From Elusimicrobiota bacterium (GTDB lineage: Bacteria; Elusimicrobiota; Elusimicrobia; UBA1565; UBA9628): 64,000 nucleotides of DNA. The position numbers were made by a program, and so were the translations under genes. This document shows, in pieces, positions 5,697-62,483 of the stretch. How positions within the stretch are numbered: position 1 is the stretch's first letter; each line of letters starts with the position of its first letter. Under the pieces are notes generated by a model. The model saw only the letters and a list, made by a program, of their open reading frames with translations. It ran no database searches and had not been told where the DNA came from. The stretch is from NCBI GenBank assembly GCA_016194705.1, contig JACQAZ010000010.1, positions 166 to 64,165 of the forward strand. The letters run 5' to 3'.

Positions 5697-5799
5697 GGCT
5701 ACCTCCAAAAGCGAACGGCGCGCGGATTTTCCTCGTCCCGAGGAAGATGCCGACGCGCCGTGAAAGGCCTCGGGACAACTCTGGGGTCGGCCTAGGTCC

Positions 5800-7889: not shown

Positions 7890-9429
7890 GGGGTCTGCGC
7901 CAGAACGCGAAGCCGGCCCAAAAAGCGGTGACCCACAAGACCATGGTGCCGAACCAGTCGCCGTGGCGCGCGTAGAAAGAACGGCGCGGGAAGAAATCCT
8001 CCGCCGCGACCGCCGCGTCCAGGCGCCCGCGCACGCCCAGATCGAGCTTGGCCGTGATGACGCCCCACGGGTCGATGACCGCCGAGATCCCCGTGTTGCC
8101 GGAGCGGATCACCGTGACGCGGTTCTCGACGGCGCGGTAGACGTTGGACTGGAAATGCTGATAAGGCCCCCAGGTGTCCTTGTACCAGCCGTCGTTGGTC
8201 ACGTTGGCCAGGATGCGCGCTCCGCGCGAGGCGTCTCGCTGCGCCCAGCGCGGGAACATCGCCTCATAGCAGATGGTGACGGCCATGGGCCCCAAAGGCG
8301 TCTCCATGAGAGGCTGGCGCGGCTCGCCCTTGGTCAAATCTCCCATCAAGGAAAGGACCGAGATGTAGCGCTCGAGGAAGCGCAGCGGCACGTACTCGCC
8401 GAAGGGGACGAGCTCCCTCTTGTGGTAGACGCCCCTGAGCTTGGCGTCCGGGCCGATCAGGAAGGCCGAGTTGTAGTTGTGGGTCCTGTCGGTCGAGACC
8501 ACCCCCACGAGCTGGTACGAGCCCAGCTTCCGGCTCCAAGTCGCGGCCTCCGCCACCGGCTGACCCTCATCGACCCATTCGGGCAGGGCCGATTCCGGCC
8601 AGACCACCAGAGAGGGGTTCTCGGGACGCGGCCGGGACAGAAGCTCGATGAAATTGCCGCGGATGCGCTCGACGAAGTTCTCATCGAATTTTTGGTATTG
8701 GTCGACGTCTGGCTGCAGGATCTCCACGCGCGCCGCGGACCCCGCGGGTGGACGCGAAACCAGGCACCACTCCCCGTACATCCAGGCGCCGGCGATCAGC
8801 GCCGCCACCGCGGCGAGGTTGGCGGCCGCGGCGCCGCTCGGCTCCCCGTCGTCAAGTTCGAGCCAAGCCGCCGCGACGCACGCATTGGCTGCGGCAACGA
8901 GCCAGCCCAAGCCGTGCGGGCCGAAAATGGAACCGATCTGCAGGAGACTTAGATAGCGCCATTGGGAGTAGGCCGGCAGATCGCCGGCGAGCCTCGGCGT
9001 CCAGCGTTCGGCGGCGACTGACACGGCAGTCCACGCGAGCGCCCACGCCCAGGGCCTGAGCGCCCGCGGGGACCTGGCGCAAAGCCATCCGCTGGCCGCG
9101 GCCGCGGCCGCCCACTCCAGGGCGAGGAAGCCGGCCAGGACGGCCCAGACGGCGGCCGCCGAGGCGACCTGCACGGCCGGGGAGGCCCAGGGCCCGGGAA
9201 CGTGGGCGAACCGGCAGGTGTTGTAGATCCAGTAGACGACCAGGCCGTGAAAGGCGAACCCCGCGGCGAAGCCCAAGCCCGCGCAGTCCCGGGGCGTGCG
9301 CTTGAAACACAGGCCGGCCAACGGAGCCAAGGCCACCCAACCCAGGGGGCATAGGCCGGCGCGTGGCCAGCACAGCCCTATCATCACCCCGGACAACAGG
9401 GCGATGCCGAGGCTCCTTAGCCGTGGCAT
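7879..9429 (-). CDS. lnt: apolipoprotein N-acyltransferase
   Basis: An N-terminal polytopic membrane domain is followed by a CN-hydrolase domain (VVWPESALP...ICYEAMFP...). The start is set at ATG 9429 (MPRLRSLGIALL), 9 nt downstream of the secA stop. The ORF-track N-terminal extension overlaps secA and is rejected. Confidence 0.85.
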   Translation of the reverse strand: MPRLRSLGIALLSGVMIGLCWPRAGLCPLGWVALAPLAGLCFKRTPRDCAGLGFAAGFAFHGLVVYWIYNTCRFAHVPGPWASPAVQVASAAAVWAVLAGFLALEWAAAAAASGWLCARSPRALRPWAWALAWTAVSVAAERWTPRLAGDLPAYSQWRYLSLLQIGSIFGPHGLGWLVAAANACVAAAWLELDDGEPSGAAAANLAAVAALIAGAWMYGEWCLVSRPPAGSAARVEILQPDVDQYQKFDENFVERIRGNFIELLSRPRPENPSLVVWPESALPEWVDEGQPVAEAATWSRKLGSYQLVGVVSTDRTHNYNSAFLIGPDAKLRGVYHKRELVPFGEYVPLRFLERYISVLSLMGDLTKGEPRQPLMETPLGPMAVTICYEAMFPRWAQRDASRGARILANVTNDGWYKDTWGPYQHFQSNVYRAVENRVTVIRSGNTGISAVIDPWGVITAKLDLGVRGRLDAAVAAEDFFPRRSFYARHGDWFGTMVLWVTAFWAGFAFWRRPRAA

Positions 9430-35210: not shown

Positions 35211-36926
35211 TCAAGACGGGTTTTTGAGGCGCACCGAGGCGCGGTAGACCAGCAGCCCGACGGCGGTAAAGCCCGCGCAGATCCACAGCAAAGCAGGTCC
35301 CGTGCCGGCGTAGTCGAGCAGCCACCCCAGACCCAAGGACACCAAAGCCGTACCCGCGATAAACAGGCCGTTGAGAAAGCTCATGACGCCTGGCTGCTCC
35401 TTTTGAGAGACCGCGCGCTGGACGTCGCTGTCGAGGCTCAGCTGGCTGGCCGCCCAGGTCGAGCTGAAGACGAAGATCGCGGGAACGAGCAGCCCGAGAG
35501 CCAGGGCGATCGGCAGGTGGAGGCCGGCCAGTGGGAGCATCCAGCCCGCGAGCAGGCCGAAAGCGCCCCAGCGCACCCAGGCGGAAGGCCCCGGGTAGCG
35601 TTGAGAGCGCTTGAGGATCAAAGAGGCGCCTCCGAGCTCGCCGAAATTCGAGGCCGTCAGCAGGACCGCTGCCAAGGCGCCCGCGCCGAGCAAGGTCTTG
35701 GCGTAGACCGGCAGCAGAAGATTCTCGAAGACGCGGTGGATGATCTGCGGCAGGACCATGGCCGCGGCCAGCCAACGGAAGCGGCGGTCGGTCAGGACTT
35801 TCTTGGCCCCCTTGAAGACATCGCCCCAGGAAGCCGAGTCCTCGTCGACGGTCTGGGCGGAGACCGGCTTGCGCACCTTCCAGAGCAGAAAGGCGGATAT
35901 GAGATAGGCGGGCGGCTGGATGAGCATCGCGTAGAGAGGCCCCACAAGCGCGATCATGGCGCCGCCTAAAGCCGAGCCGATCACGCCCGCGGTCTCGTAG
36001 CGCCGGTGCATGCGCGCGTTATACACGCGCAGGGCCTCCTCGTCGTGACCGAGCAGAAGGGACGGCATCAGGCGTCGACAGGTGTCGGCCACGCCGATGG
36101 CCGCGCCGATGAGGCCGTAGACCGGGAAGACCAGGCTCGCGGTCACCGCGTGCGCCGCGGCCAGTGCCAGCAGGCCGCCGACGAGAACGCCCTGGGCGAG
36201 CACGCTGGCGGCGAGCACCTTGCTCGCGGGGAATCGGCGCAGCAAGGGCGGAGTCAGAGCACCCCCGACGGCCTGTGCGAGTTGATAGACGATGAGCAGG
36301 CCCGCCACCATAGTCGCCCCGCCCAGGCTCTTCATGACGAGAAGGGGGAAGCTCAAGGTCACGACCTCGGCGCCAACCTTGTAGGCGGGCGTGCCCCACA
36401 TCATGAGCTTGACGTCGCGCTGCCGTTCGGGCGAGAGCGGGGCGGACTTACTCGACTGCAGACCAGATGTGTGGGGGGCCTCCTCGGGCAGCGCTGCGGC
36501 GACAGAGGGCACTGCCTCGGGAGCGCCGCCCTGCAAGAGCCTGATCTCTCCCTCGGAGCTCTGAGCTCCGATTTCACCCGAGACGCGGCCCGAGTTTTCG
36601 ATGTCGCCTGCGACCGTTTCGGCGATGGGTTCAAGCCGCGACGCGAGAGCCGCCTGGGGCGTTTCGGCACCGGCGCCCGGCAAGACAGCCTGCGGACCGG
36701 CGAGACCCGTGCTGACTTGGCCGGGCAGGACGGCATCGGCCGCGGCGTCAAGGGAGGGAATATTCGGCAAAACCGGGACGGTGTTCGCGCCGATCTCGGG
36801 GAGCTCGATCTTTGGAACCGGGGAGGTCGGGCGCGCGGCGGACGGCAGACGTCCCTCCGGCAGGCGTTCGAAGGAGGCGGCCAAAGCCGGCTGGGCGGCG
36901 ACGAGGATCTCCAGGAGAATGCGCAT
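35211..36926 (-). CDS. MFS-type transporter with a 174-aa Pro/Ala-rich N-terminal extension of uncertain reality
   Basis: The 12-TM MFS core starts at MMWGTPAYKVG, where an alternative start at ATG 36404 is possible. I see no clear RBS at either candidate start. Confidence 0.65.
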   Translation of the reverse strand: MRILLEILVAAQPALAASFERLPEGRLPSAARPTSPVPKIELPEIGANTVPVLPNIPSLDAAADAVLPGQVSTGLAGPQAVLPGAGAETPQAALASRLEPIAETVAGDIENSGRVSGEIGAQSSEGEIRLLQGGAPEAVPSVAAALPEEAPHTSGLQSSKSAPLSPERQRDVKLMMWGTPAYKVGAEVVTLSFPLLVMKSLGGATMVAGLLIVYQLAQAVGGALTPPLLRRFPASKVLAASVLAQGVLVGGLLALAAAHAVTASLVFPVYGLIGAAIGVADTCRRLMPSLLLGHDEEALRVYNARMHRRYETAGVIGSALGGAMIALVGPLYAMLIQPPAYLISAFLLWKVRKPVSAQTVDEDSASWGDVFKGAKKVLTDRRFRWLAAAMVLPQIIHRVFENLLLPVYAKTLLGAGALAAVLLTASNFGELGGASLILKRSQRYPGPSAWVRWGAFGLLAGWMLPLAGLHLPIALALGLLVPAIFVFSSTWAASQLSLDSDVQRAVSQKEQPGVMSFLNGLFIAGTALVSLGLGWLLDYAGTGPALLWICAGFTAVGLLVYRASVRLKNPS

Positions 36927-37003
36927 ATGACTATTTTAAGGAATAGCCGCCGGAAGCGACTACGGCCCTAGGACCTAGGGCGCCGCGGGCTTAGGGCCCA
37001 GGC

Positions 37004-37477
37004 TTACGGCATCAGCTTGACGATCAGGTCTTTGGCTTGGGGGAATTGCGCGAGGAGGCGGGCCTTGTCGCCGATCTCGAAGTCCGCGAAATCGAAGCCC
37101 GGCGCCACAGTGCAGCCGATCAGGCAGAAATCGCTCTCATCCTCGGGATAGGCCCCGAACCAGGTGCCGGCCGTGATCACATGCTGGAGTTGGCATCCCG
37201 AGCCGACGTCGTGGCCGAGGCGGACGATCTCGACGCGACCATTGGGGGAGATCTTGACGAGGACCAGCGGTCCGCCTAGGTAAAAATGAAACAGCTCGTC
37301 CCACTTGAGGCGGTGCAGGCGCGAGCGTGTCCCTTTAGGCAGAAGGTAATAGATCGCCGTCGAGAAATTGCGGTCGAGCTCCTTGATCTTGCCCGCGGCG
37401 CGATGAGTTTCCTTATAATAGCCGCCTTCGGGGTGAGGCTGCATGCCGTACAGCTTCACCAACTCGTCAGCGGTCAC
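37004..37477 (-). CDS. cupin-superfamily protein (DUF985-like)
   Basis: A 157-aa protein with a single cupin barrel (HRLKWDELFHFYLGGPLVL...). Confidence 0.6.
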   Translation of the reverse strand: MTADELVKLYGMQPHPEGGYYKETHRAAGKIKELDRNFSTAIYYLLPKGTRSRLHRLKWDELFHFYLGGPLVLVKISPNGRVEIVRLGHDVGSGCQLQHVITAGTWFGAYPEDESDFCLIGCTVAPGFDFADFEIGDKARLLAQFPQAKDLIVKLMP

Positions 37478-37478
37478 C

Positions 37479-38198
37479 CTAGTCCTTGAGCCGGAACTGC
37501 ATCGGGACCTTCATGCCCACGGCCCGAGGACCTGAGGAGTCCCGAGCTGGGGAGAAGCGCATCAAGAGCGCGACCTTCTGGGCCGCCGCGCCGAAATCGT
37601 CGCTGTCGGCGTGGACGATTTCCGAGCCGCCGACGATGCCGTCGACGCCGATGTGGATCTTGAGCAGGACGTCGCCCTCGCGGCCGGCGCGGCGCTCGCT
37701 CTCGGGGTAGAACTTGCGCAGCATGGCCAGCAGCTCATCCTTATTGAGGAGCTTGGGCATCTCCAAAAGCGGCGCGCCCCCGTCGCCGGTGCCGGTAGGG
37801 GTGCCGTACGGGGATTTCCCATCGATGCCGCCCGGCAGGGGAGAAATACCGGCGCCGCCGGTGACGCCGCCCGGAGTCGCGGGGCTTTCCGGTTGTTTCT
37901 CGACTTTCTTCGTTTCGGGAGTGCTCGCGGTCCAGTCCTTGGCCGGTTCCACCGGCTTTGTCGCGTCGACCGGCTTGTCAGGCTCCACAGGCAAAGGGAT
38001 CCCCTTGGCGTCCTGGATTTTCGCCTTGGGAGGAGCCAGCCTCGCGGGTCCCGTGCCGAGGAAGGGGCTCGTGATCTCGACTTCGACGGGCGGCCGTACC
38101 CAGAATGAAGGGAGGCCTCGTGCGATCAGGAAGAACAGCGCGTGCAGGACCGCGGAGGCGGCCAGCGCCTGCCGCATGTTCGGGATTCCTTCATTCAC
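37479..38198 (-). CDS. tonB: TonB-family energy transducer
   Basis: An N-terminal TM anchor, a Pro-rich spacer (PLPVEPDKPVDATKPVEP) and a C-terminal TonB domain are present. The start is in an ATGA overlap with exbD. Confidence 0.8.
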   Translation of the reverse strand: MNEGIPNMRQALAASAVLHALFFLIARGLPSFWVRPPVEVEITSPFLGTGPARLAPPKAKIQDAKGIPLPVEPDKPVDATKPVEPAKDWTASTPETKKVEKQPESPATPGGVTGGAGISPLPGGIDGKSPYGTPTGTGDGGAPLLEMPKLLNKDELLAMLRKFYPESERRAGREGDVLLKIHIGVDGIVGGSEIVHADSDDFGAAAQKVALLMRFSPARDSSGPRAVGMKVPMQFRLKD

Positions 38199-38599
38199 TT
38201 TCTCGAGACCTCGAGGCCTATCTTTCTGACACCGGCGCCGCGCACGAGATCCAGGACGCCCACGATGTCCCCGTAGGGGATCGTCTTGTCCGCCGAGAGC
38301 GTCACGTGCAGGTCAGGGTCGGCCCGGGTGCCCGCGGCCAGCAGGCTCTTGAGCTCATCGGAGGACAGCTTCTTGCCCTCGAGAATAAGCTCGCGCTTGG
38401 CGTTGTAGACGATCGACTTGGCCTCGGTCGCCGCGCGGTCGTGGTGGGCGGCCTTGGGAACGTCGACCTTGATCGCTCGTCTTGCGATGATCGGGGCGGT
38501 GGCCATGAAGATGATGAGCACGACAAGGATGATGTCGACGAACGGCGTCACGTTGATCGCGGTGATGGGGCCGTCGTTGTTTCCCGATGCGGTGGCCAT
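38195..38599 (-). CDS. exbD: biopolymer transport protein ExbD/TolR
   Basis: INVTPFVDIILVVLIIFM is the ExbD TM signature. Confidence 0.85.
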   Translation of the reverse strand: MATASGNNDGPITAINVTPFVDIILVVLIIFMATAPIIARRAIKVDVPKAAHHDRAATEAKSIVYNAKRELILEGKKLSSDELKSLLAAGTRADPDLHVTLSADKTIPYGDIVGVLDLVRGAGVRKIGLEVSRK

Positions 38600-38604
38600 G
38601 GGAG

Positions 38605-39228
38605 TCAGCGTTTGGCTCTGCCCTCGCGGATGTGCGCCATCAAGTACCGCCCCAGCGACTCGGTCCCGCCGAGCAGGTCCTTGACGTTTTTGGAGAAGTA
38701 GTTGTACGCGATCACACAGGGGATGGCCACAAATAATCCGACCGCCGTGGCGACTAGCGCCTCGGAGAGGCCCTGCATGACGACCTCGGGGCCGCCGGTG
38801 GTCTGGGCCAGATCATGGAAGGCGCGGATAACGCCCAAGACCGTGCCGAAGAGGCCGATGAAGGGCGCGTTGCTTCCGAGGGTTCCCAGGACGAGCAGCC
38901 ATTTCTCGAGCCCCTCCTTCTCGGCCAGGCTCGCCGCGATCAAGAGGTCCTCGACGCCCTCGGGGCCGTGGTGAGAGCGCGCGAGCGCCGTCTTGAGTAT
39001 CCGCCCCGCCGCTCCCGGATGCCGCTGCACGGTTTTTTCGAGCGACGGGAGATCCTCGCCGAGCCCCGCCATCACGGCTTGGCGCAGGGCGCGAAAGCCC
39101 TGGTCCTCGCGCCTCAGCGCGAAGAAGCGCTCGAATATGATCGCGACCGCCGCCAATGAGCACAACAGCAGGGCGTAGATCACCCAGTCGCCGCCCGTCA
39201 GGGCCAAGGCCCTCAGAACCGAAACCAT
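38605..39228 (-). CDS. exbB: MotA/TolQ/ExbB proton-channel protein
   Basis: GLFGTVLGVIRAF is the ExbB/TolQ signature. A GGAGG RBS is present, and the ATG overlaps the upstream stop (TAATG). Confidence 0.85.
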   Translation of the reverse strand: MVSVLRALALTGGDWVIYALLLCSLAAVAIIFERFFALRREDQGFRALRQAVMAGLGEDLPSLEKTVQRHPGAAGRILKTALARSHHGPEGVEDLLIAASLAEKEGLEKWLLVLGTLGSNAPFIGLFGTVLGVIRAFHDLAQTTGGPEVVMQGLSEALVATAVGLFVAIPCVIAYNYFSKNVKDLLGGTESLGRYLMAHIREGRAKR

Positions 39229-40883
39229 TAGTCCTCCTTGAACTTCTGCAGACGCAGCAGCGACGAGACCAGTTCGGCCTTGACCGACGGATTGGCCTCG
39301 TTCTGCAGCTCAATCATGAGCTTGCGGTAAAGATCGCCGGCGTCCGATGGCCCGCCGAGTTCGCCCAGGTAGTGGGATGCCATCGCCCGCACGAACCAGT
39401 CCTTATGCTGATAGAGCCGCAGCAGGATTTCGCGCCCAAAAATATTCCCCATACGCCAGAGCCCAGCCGCGGCGTAGACCTGCATGGCCAGCGAGGAGTC
39501 GGCGCGCGCCGCCCCGTCGACGATGAACTGGTTCCCCGTTTCCCCCTGCACGAGCAGCGATTCGAGAGCCCCGAAGCGCACCGTGATGTTGGCGTTGTTG
39601 AGCATGCCCTGGAAGAGAGGCGTGTAGCGCAGCTCTTTGGTGTAGGCCAAGGCGACCATCGCCGCCGCCTGAATCTGCACGTTGCTGCCCAGGCGGGCCG
39701 CGTCCTCGAGAGCCTGGTCGATGCCGTAGTCCTTCGAGCCGGCCAAGCCGTCGGTGAGCAGGAAGCCCAGCTGGGTGTAGCGCGTCTTGAGGTTGTAGCC
39801 GTCGAGCGTGCTGATCTTGTTAAGATTGCCGACAGAGGCGTCGAGCTGCGCTTGCGGGTCGGGCCTGGCGTCCTGACGATCGCGCAGCAGGCGCAGCAAG
39901 GTCGACCCGATCGAAGGGTCGAGGATGGCGTCGGCGGCGAGCTTGACGCGCGGAGCCGAGATGACCAGAGCCTCGAGTTGGAAGACCGGCTCCGAGTCGG
40001 GGATCGCCGACTTCGAGGCCGGGGCCGGCTCCTCCTTGACCGGTGCCCGAGCCGCCTTGTTGGCCGCCCGCACCGCGGCCGCTTTTTGCGGGAAGAGCTT
40101 TAACGCCGCGATGCAGTCCTCCGCGAGCGTAAAATCGTTCTGCTGCTCGCGGCCCAGGCGCGAGACCAACTCATCGTAGTCGGCCGCCGAGCCGTAGTCG
40201 CCCAGATACCGGGCGGCCATCGCGCGCACGAGCCAGGAGGCGTTGTCGAGGTAGCCGCGCAGCGCGGGCAGGCCGCGCGCGTCGCCGGCGCCAGCCAGCG
40301 CGCGGGCGGCGAACACGCGGAGGATCGGTTCGGGCTCGTTGCGCGAGTCCTGGCCCATCGCGAACCACTGGAGCGACTTGTCGGGATGCCCCCAAACGGT
40401 GAGGGCCTCGAGCGCTCCGAAGCGCACGGCCGGGTCGAGGTTGATGAGGGCCTCGCGAAAAACGTCGAAGTCGGCGAGGTCGTGGGCCCGGGCCAGCGCG
40501 ATGAGGGCGGACGCGCGGGTCTCCCCATCGCGCTCCCAGCGCGCCAGCTCGATGAGCTTCTTGCGAAAATCGGGATCGTCATTGCGGGACAAGGCCTCGG
40601 CCAATGGGACACCGATGCTCAGGTACCGGTTCCGCAGAGTGAAGCCGATCGGGGAGCCCAGGGCCAATATGTCGGCGGCGGGAGTTCCGGAGATCGCAAT
40701 CATGTCGACTTTCTCGTGGTCCTTGTTCTGGAGCAAGTCGACCAGGGCGTTGTTGATCGCGGCGTCGGTCTTGACGGGCCCCCCGGGCACGACCGGCCCC
40801 GAGGTCTCCTTGACGGTGATCTCGCCGCAGGCGCAGAACAGGGCCGCGGCCAGAATGAGGGCGCTCTTGCTCATGCCGTGCAT
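39228..40883 (-). CDS. HEAT/PBS-lyase repeat lipoprotein (551 aa)
   Basis: A lipobox (LFCACG) is present. Repeated units include DPAVRFGALEAL, SWLVRAMAARYLG, ITVRFGALESL and DWFVRAMASHYLG. Confidence 0.75.
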   Translation of the reverse strand: MHGMSKSALILAAALFCACGEITVKETSGPVVPGGPVKTDAAINNALVDLLQNKDHEKVDMIAISGTPAADILALGSPIGFTLRNRYLSIGVPLAEALSRNDDPDFRKKLIELARWERDGETRASALIALARAHDLADFDVFREALINLDPAVRFGALEALTVWGHPDKSLQWFAMGQDSRNEPEPILRVFAARALAGAGDARGLPALRGYLDNASWLVRAMAARYLGDYGSAADYDELVSRLGREQQNDFTLAEDCIAALKLFPQKAAAVRAANKAARAPVKEEPAPASKSAIPDSEPVFQLEALVISAPRVKLAADAILDPSIGSTLLRLLRDRQDARPDPQAQLDASVGNLNKISTLDGYNLKTRYTQLGFLLTDGLAGSKDYGIDQALEDAARLGSNVQIQAAAMVALAYTKELRYTPLFQGMLNNANITVRFGALESLLVQGETGNQFIVDGAARADSSLAMQVYAAAGLWRMGNIFGREILLRLYQHKDWFVRAMASHYLGELGGPSDAGDLYRKLMIELQNEANPSVKAELVSSLLRLQKFKED

Positions 40884-40904
40884 AGTATCAAATCGCGCTG
40901 CGCC

Positions 40905-42380
40905 TCATTCCCGCACGATCTCGACCGAAAAGACCTTTAACCGGGCTGCGGAGTCCTTCCAGCACTGCCGCGAAAGATGCGCCTTCTGCGAGCACAGTTC
41001 GCCCAGGAATGACTCCTTGTCCTTGAGCTGCTCCCAGACCTGCGGGAGGAAGACCCCGGAGCTTCCCCCTTCCTCGACGATGACCCCGTCGCCCTTGCGG
41101 ATCTCGGAGGCCGACTTGACCTCCTTGGACTGGGAGAGCCGCGAGACCTCGATGCGCAGGCCGGGAAGCTCGGCGGCCTGCACGGGCTTGAAGCGCGAGT
41201 CGCTGACAGCACTTGCCACCGCGTTGTGGGCCACGGACTCGACGAGGCTCTCCTGGGCCTGCAGCGAGCCGATGCAGCCGCGCAGCTCGCCAGAGGCCTT
41301 CTCGAGGGTCACGAAAACCGCGGCGGGCAGGTTCAGCCTGGGGTCCTTCGACAGCGCGACGGCGGGCATCTTGCCCGAGGCGAGGTAGCCTTCGATGCTG
41401 CGGCGCGCCAGGACCAAGAGCTCTTTTTTCTCGGAACCGTCGAGCGCGGCCGGGACCGCGGCGGAGACTCCCTTCAAAAAGACGACCGCGGCGTATCCTA
41501 CGACATGATGATAATCCCGCTCGGAGACGACGTCGCCCGAGTTGATGTGCGAGAGAACGCGCGCCTGCGTCGCGCCCAGCTCGCGCGCCGCGGTCATGAC
41601 GGCGGTCACGGCCCCCTCGCCGCAGTAGGTCACCGCAAGGCTCTCGAGGCCGCGGTTCATGAGCAGCCGGTTGGTCAGCCAGAAATAGGCGGGGTCCAAG
41701 GTCTTCAAGGCCTCGAGCGTCGTCCGATCGACGATGTCGGAGAGAGGCCCGCTGGGGTAGTGAGATTGATCGGAGGAGGCCACGAGAAGCACGCGCTTGC
41801 CCTTGATGGCGGAGGCCAGCGCGCGGCCGATGATGCGCGCGGACTCGAGGTCCTGCGTGTTCATGACCATGCCGACGATTTTGACGGATCCCAGACGGTA
41901 CCGCAGGAATGGGACCTGGACCTCGATCGAATGCTCCTTGTCGTGAGCCCGAGCGTCGAGCTTGATCAAGCTCGTGGTCTTGACCAATGCCCCGGCCAAG
42001 GCCGCGTCGTACTCCAGCGAGCCCTCTGGGGTCGCGTAAGCCCCAGGGTAAATCGCCGCGCCCTCGAGCTCCTTGTAATGCCCGGTTCCGAGCACGACCA
42101 CGGTATCCCAGTGCCCGGGAGCGAGCAGCTTGTAGGCGCGCGCCGCGGTCGCGCCCGAGTACTCAAGCCCGGCGTGAGGGACGAGCACGGCGACGATCTC
42201 GCCCGGGACTTTCTCGTTTGGCGCGGCTTTCAAAAGGCTCTCTACGAGCGCCTCGAGAGCCTTGGCGGACAGGGGATAGAAGCGGCCGGCCACCGACGGC
42301 AGTCTAACCGCCGCGGCCGCCGCCGCGGCGGTCAAAAAAGACAGGAAAATCCAGCCCGATCTCTTTAATAATCCGTTCAC
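40905..42380 (-). CDS. fusion of a Memo-like domain (AmmeMemoRadiSam system protein B family) with a C-terminal AMMECR1 domain (protein A family), preceded by a predicted signal peptide
   Basis: The GTG start at 42380 gives a signal-peptide-like N-terminus (MNGLLKRSGWIFLSFLTAAAAAAA). The conserved Memo start VRLPSVAGRFYP...LVPHAGLEYSG follows. The C-terminal AMMECR1 region carries RGCIGSL and VFLPQVWE. Confidence 0.8.
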   Translation of the reverse strand: MNGLLKRSGWIFLSFLTAAAAAAAVRLPSVAGRFYPLSAKALEALVESLLKAAPNEKVPGEIVAVLVPHAGLEYSGATAARAYKLLAPGHWDTVVVLGTGHYKELEGAAIYPGAYATPEGSLEYDAALAGALVKTTSLIKLDARAHDKEHSIEVQVPFLRYRLGSVKIVGMVMNTQDLESARIIGRALASAIKGKRVLLVASSDQSHYPSGPLSDIVDRTTLEALKTLDPAYFWLTNRLLMNRGLESLAVTYCGEGAVTAVMTAARELGATQARVLSHINSGDVVSERDYHHVVGYAAVVFLKGVSAAVPAALDGSEKKELLVLARRSIEGYLASGKMPAVALSKDPRLNLPAAVFVTLEKASGELRGCIGSLQAQESLVESVAHNAVASAVSDSRFKPVQAAELPGLRIEVSRLSQSKEVKSASEIRKGDGVIVEEGGSSGVFLPQVWEQLKDKESFLGELCSQKAHLSRQCWKDSAARLKVFSVEIVRE

Positions 42381-42483
42381 AGGTTCGAAATCAATTCCGA
42401 ACAGGTTTCCGCTAAACTAACCCCAGAGGCGCACAACAGTACGGCATCTAAGTTCGACAACTGAAGACAACGACCACCAGGAG

Positions 42484-42524
42484 CCCGCCCCTGCATGACT
42501 CTCCGCATGCAGGGGCGGTTTTTT
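42484..42524 (+). terminator. plus-strand intrinsic-terminator-like hairpin with a U6 tract in a minus-strand gene region. It may mark the 3' end of a small RNA on the plus strand.
   Basis: CCCGCCCCTGCATG-actctccg-CATGCAGGGGCGG is followed by TTTTTT. Genes on both sides are on the minus strand, and on that strand the T-tract is on the wrong side of the hairpin. Confidence 0.45.
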
Positions 42525-43077
42525 ACTCCGGTTTTCCCACCTTCTCGAAATTGCGCATGATCGTCTCGAGCCAGCGCTGATCCATCTCGTCGAAAGCCGA
42601 CTTGGCTTCGCTGTCGGCGTCGAAGACCGCCCAGACCTTGCCGTCCTTGTCGTAGACCGGGACCGCGATCTCGCTTTGGTTCTTGGGGTCGCACTCGATG
42701 TGCTGGTCTCCCAACGCCTTCACGTCCGGCACGATGATCGTCTTGCCTTCCTTGAGCGCCTTGCCGCAGACTCCGCTCAGCGGCAGCGGCGAGCAGGCCG
42801 GCTTCTCGCGATGGGCTCCGAGGATGAGCTCCTGGCCGCCGGGCGGGAGAACATAGAAGCCGCACCAAGAGTACGGGCTTTGCGCGAAGGTGTCCCACAA
42901 TTCGTCGACGATCTCGCGCATCATGCGCTCGCTTTTGAGCTCGCGGCGGCGCCATCTCTTCTCGAGATTGGCGTGCGCCTTGTCGTAGCGCGCCCGCGAG
43001 GGACGCGACCTCATCGCGTTGGCGTCCTTGATCTCCTGCATCTCGTTGGTCAGCTCACGTTCCTTTTCATTGGCCAT
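42523..43077 (-). CDS. GAF-domain protein of the free-methionine-(R)-sulfoxide reductase (fRMsr/YebR) type, with a basic N-terminal extension
   Basis: WCGFYVL, ACSPLPLSGVCGKA and SEIAVPV match the fRMsr catalytic Cys pattern. The start is uncertain because several Met codons are available. Confidence 0.7.
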   Translation of the reverse strand: MANEKERELTNEMQEIKDANAMRSRPSRARYDKAHANLEKRWRRRELKSERMMREIVDELWDTFAQSPYSWCGFYVLPPGGQELILGAHREKPACSPLPLSGVCGKALKEGKTIIVPDVKALGDQHIECDPKNQSEIAVPVYDKDGKVWAVFDADSEAKSAFDEMDQRWLETIMRNFEKVGKPE

Positions 43078-44110
43078 GTGTTCTCTCCAATACCACGAGC
43101 TGCCCGCAGGCGCCCTGGATGTCCCGGCCGAGGTTCTGGCGCACGGTCGCGTGGACGCCCGCGTCCAGGAGGACTTTCTGGAAGCTCCTGGCGTTCTCCT
43201 CGGACGAGGCCCGGTGCGGCGTGTCGGTCTCGTTGAAAATGATCAGATTGACGTGGATGAGCTCGCGCGGCCCCAGGCCCTTGGCGTAGGCGACGAGCCG
43301 GGCTGCGTCCTCCGGACGATCGTTCTCCTCCCGGAGCAGCACGTATTCCAAGAAGACCTTGCGCGGGGTCTCGCAGAGGTAGTTCTTGATCGCTTTGGCC
43401 AGCGCCGCCAGGGGATAAGCCTTGTTGACGGGCACAAGCCGCGTGCGCAGGGCGTCGTCGGCCGCGTGAAGGGAGAGGGCGAGGTTGACCTGCGGAAAAT
43501 CCCGGCCGAAGCGCTCTATCTGCGGGGCGATGCCCGACGTCGAGACCGAGATGTGCCGCGCGCCGATGCCGAATTGCTTCTGGTCCATGAGCGCCCGCAG
43601 GCTCTGGGCGAGCGTGTCGTAGACCGCGAAGGGCTCGCCCATGCCCATGTAGACGACGTTGTCGAGGCGCCCCTCCAGGGACTCGCGCTTCATGTACTGC
43701 CGCCAAAACAGGACCTGATCGGTGACTTCCTCGACGCTCAGGTTGCGCTGCAGGCCCATGAGGCCGGTCGCGCAGAAGGTGCAGCCCACCGCGCAGCCGA
43801 CCTGACAGGAGATGCAGGTCGTCCAGCGCACGGGGCTGGGGCGCAGCAGGACCGTCTCGACGATCTTGCCGTCGCCGAGCTCCAAGAGGGCCTTATGGGC
43901 GCGGCCGTCGGAGGAGACCTCGACGCGGCGCTCTTTGAGGCTCAGGATCGGGGCTTGGCTCTTGAGGCCGTCCCGCAGTTCGCGGGGAAGGACCGCGACG
44001 TCGTCGTAAGACGCGGCGGCCTCGGAGAAGACCGCGCGGCGCACCTGATCGAGGCGGTAGCGCGGCGCATTGAGCGCCGACAACGCGGCCTCGACTTTGT
44101 CCAGGTCCAC
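43067..44110 (-). CDS. rlmN: 23S rRNA (adenine2503-C2)-methyltransferase RlmN (radical SAM)
   Basis: CISCQVGCAVGCTFCATG is the RlmN/Cfr radical-SAM cluster motif. The start is GTG. Confidence 0.9.
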   Translation of the reverse strand: MDLDKVEAALSALNAPRYRLDQVRRAVFSEAAASYDDVAVLPRELRDGLKSQAPILSLKERRVEVSSDGRAHKALLELGDGKIVETVLLRPSPVRWTTCISCQVGCAVGCTFCATGLMGLQRNLSVEEVTDQVLFWRQYMKRESLEGRLDNVVYMGMGEPFAVYDTLAQSLRALMDQKQFGIGARHISVSTSGIAPQIERFGRDFPQVNLALSLHAADDALRTRLVPVNKAYPLAALAKAIKNYLCETPRKVFLEYVLLREENDRPEDAARLVAYAKGLGPRELIHVNLIIFNETDTPHRASSEENARSFQKVLLDAGVHATVRQNLGRDIQGACGQLVVLERTHGQ

Positions 44111-54677: not shown

Positions 54678-57221
54678 ATGAATCTCGATCGATGGACCAC
54701 CAAGTCGCAGGAATGCCTGCAGGCGGCCCAACGGCTGGCCGAAGACCGCGGCCACCAAGAACTCGGCGAGGAGCACCTGCTCAAGGCACTGCTCGAGGCC
54801 GACGGCGGCGTCGTGCCCGAGGTCGTGCGCCAGGCCGGCGCTGATCCGGCAGCTCTCCTAAAGGGACTCGATCGCGAGCTCTCGCGCCGGCCGCAGGTCT
54901 CCGGCGGACAGCTCTACCCCTCCGCGGGGCTCTCAAAAGCCCTGCGCCGGGCCGAGGACCGCATGAAGGCGATGAAGGACGAATACCTCTCCGTCGAGCA
55001 CCTGCTCTTGGGCCTGCTAGACAACGCCGGCGCCGGCGCCAAGGTCTTCGCGGAGGCGGGGCTGACCCCGGACAAGATCCTGGCCGCCTTGGCCAAGGTA
55101 CGCGGGGCCCAGCGCGTGACTTCGTCAGAGCCCGAAGGGACCTTCCAGGCTCTCGAGAAGTATGGGCGCGACTTGACCGCGCTCGCCCGGCGCGGGAAGC
55201 TCGATCCAGTCATCGGCCGCGACAACGAGATCCGCCGCGTCATCCAGGTCCTCTCGCGCAAGACCAAGAACAATCCCGTCCTCATCGGCGAGCCCGGCGT
55301 CGGCAAGACGGCCATCGTCGAGGGCCTGGCCCAGCGGGTGGCGGCCGGCGACGTTCCCGAAGGCATCAAGGACAAGAGGATCGTCGCGCTCGATCTCGGC
55401 TCTCTCGTGGCCGGCGCCAAGTTCCGCGGCGAGTTCGAGGAACGCCTCAAGGCCGTCTTGAAGGAAGTCTCCTCCAAGGAGGGCCAGATCATCCTCTTCA
55501 TCGACGAGCTCCACACCTTGGTCGGCGCCGGCGCGGCGGAGGGCGCCATCGACGCGGCCAACATGCTCAAGCCGATGCTCGCGCGCGGCGAGTTGCGCTG
55601 CGTCGGCGCCACCACCCTCGACGAGTACAAGAAGCGCATCGAGAAGGACGCCGCCTTGGAGCGCCGCTTCCAGCCCGTGACGGTCGGCGCCCCCTCGGTC
55701 GAGGACACCATCGCCATATTAAGAGGCCTCAAGGAACGCTACGAGGTCCACCACGGCGTGCAGATCCGCGACTCGGCCCTGGTCGCGGCGGCGGTCCTCT
55801 CGGACCGCTACATCGCCGACCGCTTCCTGCCCGACAAGGCCATCGACCTCGTCGACGAATCCTGCAGCCGCCTGCGCATGGAGATCGACTCGATGCCGCT
55901 CGAGCTCGACGAGACCGAGCGCAGGTTGCGCCAGCTCGAGATCGAGGCCATGGCGCTAAAAAAAGAGAAGGACGCGCCCAGCCGCGAGCGGCTCTGCGTC
56001 ATCGAAGCCGAGCTCTCCGCCCTCAAGGAGAAATCGAAGAAGCTGCGGACCCATTGGGAGATGGAAAAGAAATCCATCTCCGCGCTGCGCGAGCTCAAAG
56101 CGAAGACGGACGAGCTTAAGACCGAAGAGACCCGCGCCGAGCGCCAAGGCGACCTCACTCGCGCGGCCGAGATCCGCTACGGGAAGATTCCCGAGCTGGG
56201 CAGGAAGATCGAGGAGGCCCAAAAGGAACTCGCCAAGCTGCAGTCGACGCAGAAGCTGCTGCGCGAGGAAGTCGACGAGGAGGACATCGCGTCCGTCGTC
56301 TCGCGCTGGACGGGAGTCCCCGTCGAGCGGCTTCTCGAGGGCCAGACGCAGAAGCTGCTGCGCCTCGAGGAGGTCCTCCACGCGCGCGTGGTGGGCCAAG
56401 ACGCGGCGGTCAAGGCGGTCGCCGACGCCGTGCGCCGCGCGCGCTCGGGCCTCTCGGATCCAAACCGGCCGCTGGGAGTCTTCCTTCTGCTTGGTCCCAC
56501 GGGTGTCGGCAAGACCGAGCTCGCCCGCGCCCTGGCCGAGTTCCTGTTCGACTCCGAGAAGAGCATGGTGCGCCTCGACATGTCCGAGTACATGGAGAAG
56601 CACGCCGTCTCGCGCATGATCGGCGCGCCTCCGGGCTACGTCGGCTTCGAGGAAGGCGGCCAGCTCACCGAGGCGGTGCGCCGCAAGCCTTACTGCGTGC
56701 TGCTCCTCGATGAGATCGAGAAGGCCCATGCCGACGTCTTCAACGTGCTCCTGCAGGTCATGGAGGACGGCAGGCTCACCGATGGTCAGGGCCGCACCGT
56801 GAATTTTAGGAACGTCCTCCTGTTGATGACGTCGAACCTGCCCGCCGCCGAGCTCAAGGTCCGCTTCCGCCCGGAGTTCCTCAACCGCGTCGACGAGACT
56901 TTGATCTTCCACGCGCTTTCCGAGACGCACCTGCGCAAGATCGTGGACATCCAGCTCGCCGCGGTGGCCAAGCGCCTGGCCGAGCGGCGCATCACGCTCA
57001 CCCTGAGCGACGACGCCAAGGACTTTCTGGCCAAGGAAGGCTACGACCCGGCCTATGGGGCCAGACCCTTGAAGCGCGCCATCCAAAAGAGGATCGTCGA
57101 TCCCCTGGCCAGGCTTCTGCTGACCGGCGAGGTCAAGGACGGCGACACGATCGCGGCCGCCGCGGGCCGCGAGGGACTCTCCTTCAAGTCCGTCAAGAAG
57201 AAGGAAAGCAAAGCGGCTTGA
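54678..57221 (+). CDS. clpB: ATP-dependent chaperone ClpB
   Basis: An 847-aa protein with two AAA+ modules (GEPGVGKT; GPTGVGKT) and a coiled-coil middle domain. Confidence 0.95.
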
Positions 57222-59974
57222 ACGCCAGCTGGCTGCTCGTACTAGCGCTCTCGCCGGTCCGCGCGGCTCAAGTCTCAACGGGCACCGCGCGACTGGTCCT
57301 CATCGAGCCCGCCTCCATCTCGGCCGGCACGATCCTCGACGCTCCGCTCGAGCGTCTCCTGCGCCTCTCCTCGTCGAGCGTCCGTTTGCTCGACATCCAG
57401 TCCGTGCCCTGCTACCATTCGGGCACCGATTACCGACTGCGCCTGCCGGCCGCGCCTGGGCCCGCGGACGAAGCCGTTTTCTCTACCATGTCGGCGGTCG
57501 CGCTCGAGGCCGAGTCCGAGGCGGCCCTGATTTTTCCGCCCGAGCCGGAACTGATCTCGGGCCTGCAGACACTCGCCGAGGATCCCGCCAGCTACCGCGT
57601 CCCTTGGACGGTGCGCACCGCGACCAAGACCTTGAGCCTCATGCAGATGCGCGGGCCGAGCGGCGAGGCGCTGGTCACGGTCCAGCTCGATCCCAGCGCG
57701 GGAGAGGGCGCGCAATGGCTGCCGGCGGTCGCGCAGTCCTATCGCCTGAGCTGGAGAGGGCGCGAGGTTTCCATCGTGCTCGTGGCCAAGCTGCACGGCG
57801 GCCTCGGGCGATTGGCGACGGTGCTGGCGCGCGAGCAAAAGAGGGGCCCCGTGCTCGGAGTGGCGCGCAGCGACGCGTTCGGCTCCAGCTTCACCGAGCC
57901 CAAGGGGCGGGCGCTGGCCGAGAAGCTTGAGAGCCTCGGGCTCAAGTACTCCGCGGCGGGCTCGGCCGAGGTCCGACGCTGGCGAGAGGTCCAGCAGTAC
58001 CGGCGAGAGCGTCCCGAGGGCATTGAGTTCCTGTCGGCCAACCTGGTCTACGCCTCCGCGCCCGCCAAGACCATCCTTCCCGACCACGCGGTCGTGAGCG
58101 TCGGCGGCATCAAGCTCTGCCTCGTCGGCATGACGCCGCCCGAGGCCGCGAAGTACCTCGGACAAGGGGGCCTTGCCGACGCGGCGGTCGCCGATCCCGT
58201 GGAAGCCTTCCGCTCCAAGGCCGTCTCGTATCGGCGGGAATGCGAGCTCGTCGCCATCCTCGGCGCGCTCACACCCGAGGCGGCGCGCCTGCGCTTCGAG
58301 GCGCTGGGCGCCGATCTGATCGTCGGCGAGGATTACGAGTCGCCCTACCACCAGGGCGAGCGCCCTGAAAGCCACGTGCACCGGGCCCGGGTCTACGACT
58401 TCGACCAACCCCTCTGGATCATGAAGGCGTGGGACGAGACTCTGAACATCTTGGAAGTCGGCGTGCGCAAGGAGGGCGAGGCGCGCTCGGTCGACATCAT
58501 CGAACGCCACGTCAGCCTCGACGAAAGCGTACCGTGGGCTCTTGGGATTCCCGTCTTCGCGCCCGAGACCTACGCGACCGCGCTCTCCACCGAGCCTCCG
58601 ATCCTGCCATCGGCGCGGCGCATCCTGCCGGCGTCCGCGGGAGAGGGCGGATTCCCGCAGATCACGGCCGAGAATTTCTGGACACTGGCGGCCGGGATGC
58701 TCGCGGATTCGACTCGCTCCGAGGCGGGCCTCTTGCGCGTGCTCCCGCTGCCGATCCAAGAGGACACCGACATCCCGGAGTCCGTCGTGCGGGCTTGGCT
58801 CTCCGACGAGGACCAGGCCGTGGTGCTCTACCTCAAGGGCTCGGAACTCAAGGCATTGCTGGCAGAGGCCAAGGTGCAGTCCGAGCGCAGGGCGAAGGGA
58901 CTTCCCAAGGGCTCCAAGATCGCCTTCACTGCCGGCGGCGTCGATCGTGGGGGAAAGATCCACGGCGTGCCAATCGAGGACCGGCAGGTCTACCGCGTGG
59001 CCACGACCCAGGTGCTCGCCGACGCGCTGGGCCTCTCACCCGGCCGCGATCCTCAGCCCGTCGGACGCACGGCCGACGAGCTGATCCTGGAGGGCTTGCG
59101 CAAACGACGCGGCGCGCAGCCTTCGGCCTATCAAGGCTGGATGCAGGGCCAGCCGGTCTCGAGGCGCGGGCTTTGGCGGCTCGATTTTCGCGACGTGGGG
59201 CTCAACATCCAGAACACCTCGGTGGTGCGCGACGACGCCTTCGACGCGGTCCCCAACGCGCGCATCCAGGGCTTCAATCAATATACCATCGGCGGCTTCC
59301 TCAAGACCGACGCGGACTATTTCTACGAGCCCTACAAATGGTCCAACACCGTCGAACTCGAATATGCCAAGACGCGCCTGCGCCCGCGGCAAGGCCCCCC
59401 CGTCACCAACACGCCGTCCAACCGCATCATGGCGCTCACAAGTGCCACGCGCCGCGCGGGCGCCATCAAACAGGCCTGGCTGGCCCAGTCGTGGGGCCCC
59501 TCATTGGGCTTCCAGTTCGACAGCGAGTTCGATCCCGCCCCAGGCCTGCCGCGCAAGCAGGTCTACAGCGCCTTCCCCGGCGTCGAGTTGTACGACGGGA
59601 CCTTCGTGCGCAAGTGGGAGCTCACCCTCAACCTCAAGCGCGATCAGTCGCGCGACCCGCCCAACACCCAGGGCGGCCTGCACACGCGCATGCTGGTCTC
59701 CAAGGACCTCGGCAAGGCGCCGGTCAACCTCCAGGGCGAAGTCTACGCCAACTATTTCTTCCTGACCCGCCGCGACACGATCCAGGACCTGCGCTTCGAG
59801 GGCGACATCAACTTCAAGCTCAAGGTCCCGATCCGGAAATACCTGACGGTCGCCCCGTTCCTCGACCTCTACGCCTTCGAGCTCAAGCTCAGGCCGCTCG
59901 CGGGCTACTCCATCATGACCGGGATCTCGATCGGCTTCTCGCGTCTCTGGAAGCCGCAGTATGAGAGCTTCTAG
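57218..59974 (+). CDS. large secreted protein (918 aa) with a C-terminal beta-barrel-like region ending in an aromatic residue; putative outer-membrane protein
   Basis: A TTG start sits in a TTGA overlap with the clpB stop. A signal peptide is present ([19 protein letters not shown]). The C-terminus ...[13 protein letters not shown] fits the terminal-Phe OMP signature, and the last 350 aa have alternating hydrophobic residues. Confidence 0.6.
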
Positions 59975-60536: not shown

Positions 60537-62483
60537 ATGGTGGGAATGGCCGCCAACCGCTTCCTGCCGATGACCCGCCGCGAGATGAAGGATCGCGGGT
60601 GGGACGAGGTCGACGTCATCTTCGTGACCGGCGACGCCTACATCGACCATTACTCTTTCGCCATGGCGATCCTCGGTCGAGTGCTCGAGCACGCGGGCTT
60701 CAAAGTTGCGATCCTCTCCCAGCCCGACTGGCGCTCCTGCGAGCCCTGGAAGACCTTCGGCCGTCCGAGACTGTTCTTCGGCATCAGCGCCGGGAACATG
60801 GACTCGATGATCAACCACTACACCGCGAACAAGAAGGTGCGCAACGACGACGCGTATTCTCCCGGAGGAAAGATCCATCTGCGTCCCGACCGCGCCACGC
60901 TAGCGTACTGCCAGCGCGCGCGCGAGGCGTACGAAGGCGTCCCGGTCATCGCCGGCGGCGTCGAGGCGAGTCTGCGGCGCCTGGCGCACTACGACTACTG
61001 GAGCGACACGGTCAAGCCCTCGATCCTGCTCGACTCGAAGGCCGATCTGGTCGCCTACGGCATGGGCGAGGAGACCATCGTAGAAATAGCCAAGCGCTTC
61101 GCCGCCGGCAAGACCGTCAAGGACATGCGCGACCTGCGCGGCATCGCCTATGCTTTGGGCGCCTCCGAGCCGCCTCCCGCGCCCGACGAGAAGACTTTGC
61201 ATATCCCGAGCTTCGAGGAGGTCAAGGCCGACAAGGACAAGTTCCTTCGCGCGACTCACTTGATCCACCGAGAGACCAGCCCCTTCAACGCCAAGACCAT
61301 CGTCCAGAAGCACGGCGCCCGCCACGTGGTGCAGACCCCGCCCCAGCTGCCGGTCAGCCAAGAGCGCATGGACTTCTATTACGGCCTGCCCTACACGCGC
61401 CGCCCGCATTTCAGCTATCGCGAGGCGATCCCGGCTTTCGAGATGATCAAGGACTCGGTCACGATCATGCGCGGCTGCTTCGGCGGCTGCACCTTCTGCT
61501 CGATCACCGCGCACCAGGGCCGCACGATCCAGTCGCGCTCGCAGGACAGCGTCTTGAAGGAACTCAAGGCGCTGGGCCAAGACCCCGAGTTCAAGGGCAC
61601 GGTCTCCGACATCGGCGGGCCGACGGCGAACATGTACCAGATGCGCTGCACCAAGCCCGAGATCGAGAAGATCTGCAAGCGCCTCTCGTGCGTGAGCCCG
61701 ACGATCTGCAAGTGCCTGGGAACCGACCACGGCCCCCTGACCGAGTTGATGAAAAAGTCCCGCGAGGTCGACGGCGTCGACAAGGTGCTCGTCGCCAGCG
61801 GCATACGCATGGACTTAGCGAGGCTCTCGCCCGAGTACATGACCGAGTTGACAGCCCACCACATCGGAGGGCGCCTCAAGGTCGCGCCCGAGCATACCGA
61901 CCCGAAGGTGCTCGCCGCCATGAAGAAGCCGGCCCACGACACCTTCGAGGATTTCGCCGAAAAATTTAAGGAAGAGAACCGCAAGGCGGGCAAGAACCAG
62001 TTCCTCGTGCCTTATTTCGTCTCCGGCCACCCCGGCTCGGACTTGAACGCTATGATCGATCTGGCGATTTTCCTCAAGCGCAACGGCTACAAGCCCGACG
62101 CCGTCCAGGATTTCATCCCGGCGCCCTTTGACGTGGCGACCGCGATGTACTACACGGGCAAAGACCCCGAGACCGGGCGGGAACTCCCGATCGCGCGCAA
62201 CCTGCGCGACCGCAAGCTGCAGCGAGCTCTTTTGCAGTTCTTCAAGCCCGAGAATTATTTCGAAGTCAGGGAGGCTTTGCTCAAAGCCGCCCGCAAGGAC
62301 CTGATCGGAAGCGGCTGCGACTGCCTGATCCCGTCGAACCCGCCGCGCCAGGCGATCCTCGCCCGCCGTTCGATGGCCAACCGCGACGCGGACGAGCACG
62401 TTCACGCGCGCGAGTTCCCGAAGAAGCATGGCGGACCGAAGGGCTATCGTCCGCAGAGACCCTCGGCCCGTCGTCGAAGTTGA
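60537..62483 (+). CDS. ygiQ: YgiQ-family radical SAM protein (UPF0313)
   Basis: The CFGGCTFCS radical-SAM motif is present. The N-terminal YgiQ domain and the characteristic basic C-terminal tail are also present. Confidence 0.9.
   Translation: MVGMAANRFLPMTRREMKDRGWDEVDVIFVTGDAYIDHYSFAMAILGRVLEHAGFKVAILSQPDWRSCEPWKTFGRPRLFFGISAGNMDSMINHYTANKKVRNDDAYSPGGKIHLRPDRATLAYCQRAREAYEGVPVIAGGVEASLRRLAHYDYWSDTVKPSILLDSKADLVAYGMGEETIVEIAKRFAAGKTVKDMRDLRGIAYALGASEPPPAPDEKTLHIPSFEEVKADKDKFLRATHLIHRETSPFNAKTIVQKHGARHVVQTPPQLPVSQERMDFYYGLPYTRRPHFSYREAIPAFEMIKDSVTIMRGCFGGCTFCSITAHQGRTIQSRSQDSVLKELKALGQDPEFKGTVSDIGGPTANMYQMRCTKPEIEKICKRLSCVSPTICKCLGTDHGPLTELMKKSREVDGVDKVLVASGIRMDLARLSPEYMTELTAHHIGGRLKVAPEHTDPKVLAAMKKPAHDTFEDFAEKFKEENRKAGKNQFLVPYFVSGHPGSDLNAMIDLAIFLKRNGYKPDAVQDFIPAPFDVATAMYYTGKDPETGRELPIARNLRDRKLQRALLQFFKPENYFEVREALLKAARKDLIGSGCDCLIPSNPPRQAILARRSMANRDADEHVHAREFPKKHGGPKGYRPQRPSARRRS

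Follow-up and report, generated by a model that had tools for sequence, protein, structure and literature searches.

How does a protein of the AmmeMemoRadiSam family come to carry an export signal and to head a row of Ton genes? The question is raised by the gene at 40905-42380 (minus strand) of a 64,000-nucleotide stretch of Elusimicrobiota DNA (contig JACQAZ010000010.1, positions 166 to 64,165), here called the window, which is nearly the entire 64,321-bp contig of an uncultured Elusimicrobia metagenome-assembled genome (MAG). The canonical AmmeMemoRadiSam system is made up of three separate cytoplasmic genes, which encode protein A (AMMECR1), protein B (Memo) and the radical S-adenosylmethionine (SAM) enzyme AmrS. 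A reading of the window made from the sequence alone had noticed that B and A are fused behind a signal-like leader, and had proposed that the exported fusion forms one new envelope system, coupled to the proton motive force and devoid of a radical SAM enzyme, together with the HEAT-repeat lipoprotein, ExbB, ExbD, TonB and cupin encoded next to it. The analysis presented here leads to another answer: the fusion is probably a periplasm-facing, metal-dependent enzyme of an exported subfamily, which adjoins an autonomous Ton operon and has lost its cis linkage to AmrS. With an exported B/A fusion and no cis AmrS, the locus represents a lineage-specific variant within a family that is known and widespread.

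The fused enzyme

Both domains are present in a single 491-aa polypeptide, as the sequence-only reading had it, and their limits are confirmed by profiles with scores far above the cutoffs. The Memo domain matches Pfam PF01875 at residues 28-300 with 193.5 bits (cutoff 27) and the protein B model TIGR04336 at residues 26-301 with 233.1 bits (cutoff 26), while the AMMECR1 domain matches PF01871 at residues 323-488 with 154.5 bits and the protein A model TIGR04335 with 170.1 bits (cutoff 99). The layout is as follows:

Residues 1-24: predicted signal peptide
Residues 26-301: Memo
Between the two domains: linker
Residues 320-488: AMMECR1

Residues H69, H101 and C253 of the fusion align to the metal triad H49/H81/C244 through which MEMO1 binds Fe/Cu (PMC11081632). 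The LRGCIG motif of AMMECR1 lies at residues 366-371, and both the His-His-Cys triad and this motif are invariant in an alignment of 32 sequences (A1). An AlphaFold2 model of the fusion (pLDDT 93.6, pTM 0.88) retrieves MEMO1 (TMt 0.80, E = 3.5e-20) and PH0010 (1vaj; TMt 0.78) when searched with Foldseek. The fold expected of Memo, which is LigB-like, is thereby recovered. With metal site, motif and folds intact, the enzyme looks functional.

Start codon and export signal

Read from the GTG at 42380, the fusion begins with MNGLLKRSGWIFLSFLTAAAAAAA followed by VRLPSVAGRFYP, that is with a positively charged n-region (K6/R7), a hydrophobic core of 17 residues and a c-region rich in Ala, in which AAA before V satisfies the -3/-1 rule of signal peptidase I. 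This amounts to a leader of 24-25 residues, so that the signal-like character claimed for it earlier holds while the claimed length of 23 residues does not. The segment that encodes it (MNGLLKRSGWIFLSFLTAAAAAAA; 42309-42380, minus strand) has a start that is conserved among homologues, and in the AlphaFold model residues 1-20 form a lone helix outside the fold with a pLDDT of about 55. The GTG is the most upstream start possible in this frame (the stop-to-stop open reading frame, ORF, opens at 42416), the codon of V25 is GTT and incapable of initiation, and the alternatives are limited to the TTG of L16 (42333-42335) and the GTG of V30. The deposited protein MBI3551822.1 (476 aa) begins at the TTG, dropping the n-region and half of the h-region, and with a start at V30 the product would be missing R-x-P-x-V-A-G, the conserved N-terminus of the Memo profile.

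Homologues provide the decisive comparison. Among the best 120 (40-71% identity, almost all two-domain), 107 could be scored, and 97 of these have a Sec- or lipoprotein-type leader, in which a basic n-region and a hydrophobic core are followed by a c-region of AxA-like or lipobox type; the leader stands directly before the conserved (E/V)R-P-P-A-V-A-G-x-F-Y-P N-terminus of Memo. An MN(K/G/E)LL N-terminus is common to about 18 of the closest homologues and the GTG product of the window (MNGLL), and an independent gene call from Logan (P0241) is the same 491-aa protein. Because the homologue N-termini and this independent call back the longer product, we conclude that the deposited 476-aa start is most probably wrong and the 491-aa product the correct one. 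The window fusion has the features of a Sec-type signal peptide by heuristic scoring, and these features are conserved in homologues.

An ordinary cytoplasmic B/A protein, translated from L16 or V30 with the hydrophobic stretch as an untranslated leader, would agree with the NCBI annotation and with the observation that no clear Shine-Dalgarno sequence precedes either candidate start; a minority of homologues (L006, L013, L018, L022, L028 and L032) is also genuinely leaderless. Such a protein is nevertheless very hard to credit here, as the closest homologues, each of them called independently, keep the MNGLL...hydrophobic...AxA leader in their protein sequences, as some of the 97 leaders contain lipoboxes, and as the V30 start is at odds with the Memo profile and the TTG start with the independent 491-aa call. 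The downstream start that the sequence-only reading had named as its own refutation is not borne out. Less remote, if still rather unlikely, is an uncleaved signal anchor that would tether the enzyme to the outer face of the inner membrane instead of releasing it into the periplasm. The fairly long h-region (about 17 residues) abuts the first conserved Memo residue, relatives use lipoboxes as another kind of membrane tether, and the partner AmrS proteins of Elusimicrobia also have N-terminal hydrophobic helices; on the other side stand the c-region with its signal peptidase I site and the typical AxA sites, followed by short polar spacers, of the homologues. In either event we conclude that the fusion is in all likelihood exported or membrane-tethered and faces the periplasm, and translocation followed by cleavage of the leader would be its expected fate.

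Distribution of the fusion and its linkage to AmrS

The fusion was taken by the sequence-only reading to be unusual, which it is not: it is widespread across bacterial phyla. A survey of GTDB with one genome per species gave at least 600 pattern matches, of which 80 loci were kept. Among the matches listed, to which all counts from this survey refer, every one of the 80 loci has the fusion in full length, with hosts in Elusimicrobiota, Acidobacteriota, Omnitrophota, Desulfobacterota, Bacteroidota, Latescibacterota, KSB1, Calditrichota, Chloroflexota, Nitrospirota, Myxococcota, Fibrobacterota, Candidate Phyla Radiation (CPR) groups and others. Such fusions are already labelled "protein B/protein A" by JGI. 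The export signal is likewise the majority state of the fused subfamily and not peculiar to the window locus, with signal-like leaders, many of them containing clear lipoboxes, on 65 of the 77 scorable fusions. A scan of metagenome contigs with the window protein returned five distant loci only and no close relatives.

A bona fide AmrS is encoded in 54 of the 80 loci, in 44 of them directly upstream of the fusion on the same strand, and the identity of these neighbours is given by TIGR04337 scores of 322-372 bits (cutoff 220). Of the 65 signal-bearing fusions, 49 have AmrS in cis. According to the sequence-only reading, a fusion found together with a standard AmrS elsewhere would point to the ordinary cytoplasmic system; the co-localisation does exist, because signal-bearing fusions adjoin TIGR04337-verified AmrS, but it points to an exported system and not to a cytoplasmic one. 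A single Elusimicrobia MAG (JACRDS01) holds two fusion paralogues: L009 is exported and window-like, with a Cupin_5 gene 1.5 kb upstream and no AmrS seen, and L028 is signal-less and directly followed by a signal-less AmrS.

The claim that a radical SAM partner is missing locally has stood up. A tblastn search of the 64-kb window with two bona fide AmrS proteins reached a best E of 0.09, so that no TIGR04337 enzyme is encoded together with A and B in the window, and AmrS is also absent from contigs of the window clade of up to 223 kb. The nearby rlmN and ygiQ genes do belong to other families, as had been stated (TIGR00048, 296 bits, and PF08497, respectively). In the model favoured here, the window fusion is one of a large group of B/A fusions, spread over many phyla and exported or of lipoprotein type, which most lineages encode immediately downstream of AmrS, and the Elusimicrobia lineage of the window would have lost or moved its cis-linked AmrS.

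As a side observation, genes for PLDc_2 (phospholipase D/cardiolipin synthase-like) and Fer4_5 (polyferredoxin-like) proteins recur within a few kb of Elusimicrobia fusions, namely at 11941-14340 in L004 (which has both), 14160-15290 in L005 (Fer4_5) and 9523-10710 in L007 (PLDc_2). This recurrence may have a bearing on how electrons are supplied or on a lipid as the substrate.

Targeting signals on the partner AmrS

The AmrS enzymes encoded beside exported fusions mostly have predicted targeting signals themselves. A twin-arginine motif is found at the N-terminus of 32 of the 53 scorable AmrS neighbours, for example MISRRDFL, SRREFLK and LDRRSFLK, a predicted signal for twin-arginine translocation (Tat). 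One of these proteins passes the curated TIGR01409 model (21.0 bits against 16.7) and the remaining Tat calls are based on the motif. The Tat-type enzymes score 355-372 bits with TIGR04337, and in 21 of the 32 the AmrS core is preceded by a conserved AP(R/K)ARYW...CxxCH segment. The CxxCH of this segment is not called as a heme site, as Pfam gives no cytochrome c domain. The AmrS proteins of Elusimicrobia and Omnitrophota have a plain N-terminal hydrophobic helix (a Sec-like leader or an anchor) and no twin-arginine motif; those of L004 and L005 align with TIGR04337 (349 positions) in two separate stretches, which fits an insertion of about 70 residues. The loci of both types are:

Tat-type AmrS: L014, L021, L024-L026, L029, L031, L033, L037, L040, L041, L044, L046
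Tat-type AmrS, continued: L048, L049, L051, L053, L054, L056, L063, L067-L069, L071-L074, L077, L078, L082, L085
Hydrophobic-helix AmrS: L004 (6748-8004), L005 (5657-6886), L010, L011, L015, L023, L030, L034, L038
Hydrophobic-helix AmrS, continued: L042, L043, L061, L081, L083

These signals suggest an extracytoplasmic branch of AmmeMemoRadiSam, in which the fusion is Sec-exported or lipidated, AmrS itself is targeted outward and the window lineage represents a derived state without cis AmrS. This wider proposal is put forward tentatively, as possible but with the balance tilted somewhat against it. In the searchable literature, a scope in which the key 2019 comparative paper does not fall, no description of a Tat-targeted radical SAM enzyme was found and nothing relevant on AmmeMemoRadiSam or AMMECR1 in connection with a signal peptide or the periplasm. 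A radical SAM enzyme targeted by Tat would be surprising; if the proposal is true, such an enzyme would work in the periplasm or at its outer face, and one would have to ask how a radical enzyme that depends on SAM obtains its supplies beyond the cytoplasm.

The Ton neighbourhood

The ORFs from 37004 to 42380 form the tightly packed minus-strand array that had been described, and all six were recovered at exactly the same coordinates:

40905-42380, minus: Memo-AMMECR1 (AmmeMemoRadiSam B/A) fusion, 491 aa, GTG start (Pfam and NCBIfam profiles)
39228-40883, minus: HEAT-repeat lipoprotein, 551 aa, lipobox LFCAC (HEAT_2 above cutoff)
38605-39228, minus: ExbB/TolQ-family proton channel subunit, 207 aa (MotA_ExbB PF01618, 110 bits)
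38195-38599, minus: ExbD/TolR-family subunit, 134 aa, transmembrane Asp in PFVDII (PF02472, 92 bits)
37479-38198, minus: TonB-family protein, 239 aa (TonB_C PF03544, 41 bits)
37004-37477, minus: Cupin_5 (DUF985) protein, 157 aa, without signal peptide (Cupin_5, 160 bits)

From the fusion through HEAT, ExbB, ExbD and TonB to the cupin, the junctions measure +21, -1, +5, -4 and +1 nucleotides (nt), and the Pfam cutoffs are exceeded by HEAT_2, MotA_ExbB, ExbD, TonB_C and Cupin_5; the operon-like arrangement is therefore real. The HEAT lipoprotein belongs to a family limited to Elusimicrobia (125 homologues, all from this group) and its lipobox is kept in 5 of 5 orthologues, as LFCAC before G in the window and as LAGAC, LVGCA, LAACT and FSGCA in the others. 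TonB consists of an N-terminal transmembrane helix with the SxxxH motif (SAVLH), a Pro/Lys-rich linker and the TonB_C domain, so that the coupling motifs of both TonB and ExbD (the transmembrane Asp) are present. No Plug or TonB_dep_Rec domain is found in any of the 10 real (non-shadow) window ORFs of at least 600 aa, and the earlier statement that no TonB-dependent receptor is adjacent is upheld. A Tol-Pal identity was considered for the ExbB/ExbD-type genes: the best NCBIfam models are TolQ/TolR, though below cutoff (for ExbB, the closest are TolQ and ExbB, both below their equivalog cutoffs), while the third protein is of the TonB_C type; no search for TolB or Pal was made. Because the HEAT lipobox is conserved, the SxxxH motif and the transmembrane Asp are present and the set occurs without the fusion, HEAT-ExbB-ExbD-TonB has the look of a Ton operon complete in itself, in which the HEAT protein would be a helical-repeat accessory.

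The order fusion-HEAT-ExbB-ExbD-TonB is kept in L001/L002 (71% identity), L093 (62%), L094 (58%) and L095 (57%), and in L003 (58%) as fusion-ExbB-ExbD-TonB without HEAT. This conservation is vertical synteny, because the unrelated housekeeping genes upstream (PC4, CNNM, hemE, hemY, mgtC, rlmN and GAF) are collinear as well in all Ton-linked relatives. The genes after TonB vary by genome, some relatives having RNase D, an ABC transporter or other genes in place of the cupin, so that the cupin is co-oriented with the block but lies outside its conserved part and does not qualify as a member of the module. Beside the fusions of L096 (53%) and L006 (50%) the Ton block is missing. Among the loci compared, the adjacency is seen only in the window and in L001/2, L003, L093, L094 and L095, and in about 85 other loci the fusion has no ExbB, ExbD or TonB gene next to it, even with a threshold of E <= 0.01. 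In a rough neighbour-joining (NJ) tree, the Ton-linked fusions form one clade, with signal-bearing, AmrS-linked Elusimicrobia fusions as its next relatives; the adjacency therefore arose once.

The reverse case also exists. A 264,579-bp contig (JGI 3300056388) has a HEAT orthologue (54% identical) in the same backbone without a Memo-AMMECR1 gene, in the order ...hemE-hemY-mgtC-rlmN-GAF-[197 nt]-HEAT-ExbB-ExbD-TonB, and several contigs with HEAT orthologues (100-265 kb) carry none of the best 120 fusion homologues. As HEAT-Ton occurs without the fusion and the fusion without HEAT or Ton, the two parts were gained and lost independently at one chromosomal site; fusion, HEAT, Ton and cupin do not co-occur across lineages as an inseparable module. 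On the 264,579-bp contig, TonB is followed by a gene for a giant 3,787-aa protein with faint fn3/Ig-like matches.

How does the system of the sequence-only reading, with all six products joined in one machine, fare against these results? Besides the tight and co-oriented array, it can draw on the predicted extracytoplasmic location of both the fusion and the HEAT protein, on a gene order kept in 5-6 genomes at 57-71% identity, on the lack of AmrS on the contigs of the window clade (up to 223 kb), and on the Fe/Cu bound by MEMO1 (PMC11081632), as Ton systems import metal chelates. We nevertheless regard it as quite unlikely, since an adjacency of single origin lies in a region that is equally collinear for hemE, hemY and rlmN, the same backbone has the Ton genes without the fusion, L006 and L096 have the fusion without Ton, L003 lacks HEAT, the cupin is not conserved and Ton genes are absent near the fusion in the other loci. 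Of the earlier claim of a periplasm-facing, proton-motive-force-coupled module, the first half is retained and the coupling is not; its proposed check, conservation of the neighbourhood in relatives, turns out positive within one Elusimicrobia clade and negative outside it. Judged by gene order, the Ton adjacency is a lineage-specific juxtaposition, a synteny artefact and not a new envelope machine.

Several points weigh against the account of a periplasmic enzyme next to an independent operon. Its export is predicted from heuristics and conservation. Co-transcription of the fusion with the Ton genes is likely, because the junctions are -4 to +21 nt and no terminator lies between the genes. 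A functional tie to the Ton motor specific to this lineage seems improbable but keeps some standing, because the arrangement persists down to 57% protein identity. Finally, L006, the one signal-less orthologue in the same backbone, is also without the Ton block, a weak correlation with n=1. Taking these points together with the rest, we favour a Sec-exported, periplasm-facing Memo-AMMECR1 fusion with intact His-His-Cys site and LRGCIG motif, whose gene is flanked by the GAF gene on one side and by an autonomous HEAT-lipoprotein/ExbB/ExbD/TonB operon on the other, perhaps co-transcribed with this operon but not an obligate component of it. The enzyme would act in a metal-dependent manner on an envelope or periplasmic substrate, presumably independently of the Ton motor.

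Other features of the window

Upstream of the fusion and elsewhere in the window, the following features were recorded:

42381-42522, minus: 142-nt leader separating the fusion from the GAF gene and containing a GC-rich hairpin
42523-43077: GAF_2 protein, 184 aa, overlapping the end of rlmN by 11 nt
43067-44110: RlmN (TIGR00048)
60537-62483: YgiQ-type radical SAM gene (PF08497)
7879-10011: Lnt

SecA and Lnt are both encoded within the window. The hairpin (42485-42518) is a strong, GC-rich one of 13 bp directly after the GAF stop codon, with a T-run following it on the plus strand only, and a 156-nt leader upstream of the fusion folds with a minimum free energy of -60.9 kcal/mol (z = -3.4). An Rfam scan of 36800-43300 yields no riboswitch and no leader RNA family; a Twister-sister match inside a coding region is due to chance (21 bits against a gathering score of 34, E = 0.5). 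The rlmN-GAF pair is kept even in relatives without the fusion or without the Ton block, and the 184-aa GAF_2 protein presumably resembles GAF proteins of the free methionine-(R)-sulfoxide reductase type. At 13483-15372 (minus) the window encodes a second HEAT_2 protein, joined to a peptidyl-prolyl isomerase of the cyclophilin type, as does L096 at 1119-3059, and this lineage seems to have an expanded set of HEAT-repeat proteins. Two large ORFs of the window, 3411-5828 (minus; 805 aa) and 57218-59974 (plus; 918 aa), are unmatched in Pfam at E <= 0.001.

Significance

The practical gain is a corrected start codon for MBI3551822.1, together with the prediction of a place in the periplasm for an enzyme family that is usually regarded as cytoplasmic. 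The locus also serves as a warning, in that an attractive "Ton-coupled Memo-AMMECR1 machine" proves to be an artefact of synteny. Memo and AMMECR1, which have been linked to disease, are conserved in organisms as distant as archaea and humans, and to our knowledge no reaction is known for either of them. A bacterial version located in the envelope, if true, would narrow the substrates to envelope lipids, isoprenoids or exported proteins. Burroughs and colleagues reportedly proposed base or isoprenoid modification in 2019, and a lipid or isoprenoid as the substrate would agree better with a place in the envelope. If confirmed and not already described, the export signals of the B/A fusions and the Tat signals of AmrS matter more widely than the window locus itself.

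Comparison with known systems

TonB-ExbB-ExbD systems with a helical-repeat accessory protein are known from the TonB2 cluster of Vibrio, in which this protein is of the tetratricopeptide repeat (TPR) type. The window operon is similar in its domains above the Pfam cutoffs, its SxxxH motif and transmembrane Asp and its adjacent alpha-solenoid protein, while it differs in that the accessory is an Elusimicrobia-only HEAT lipoprotein, that no receptor is encoded in the window and that the best NCBIfam models are TolQ/TolR-like and below cutoff.

For the fusion, comparison can be made with human MEMO1 (PDB 3BCZ, 7KQ8, 7L5C), which has the fold of the window Memo domain (TMt 0.80) and the same His-His-Cys Fe/Cu site (PMC11081632), and with the archaeal AMMECR1 homologues PH0010 (1VAJ), ST0229 (1WSC) and MM0484 (1ZQ7), which share the LRGCIG motif and, for PH0010, the fold (TMt 0.78). 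Unlike the window fusion, all of these are separate, cytosolic proteins without a signal peptide. The closest known system remains AmmeMemoRadiSam (TIGR04335/TIGR04336/TIGR04337). The window locus departs from it in the fusion of B and A, in the predicted Sec signal and in the absence of AmrS, both within 64 kb and on contigs of its clade that reach 223 kb, whereas the fusion scores far above both curated cutoffs, its motifs and folds are intact and its close exported relatives adjoin bona fide AmrS.

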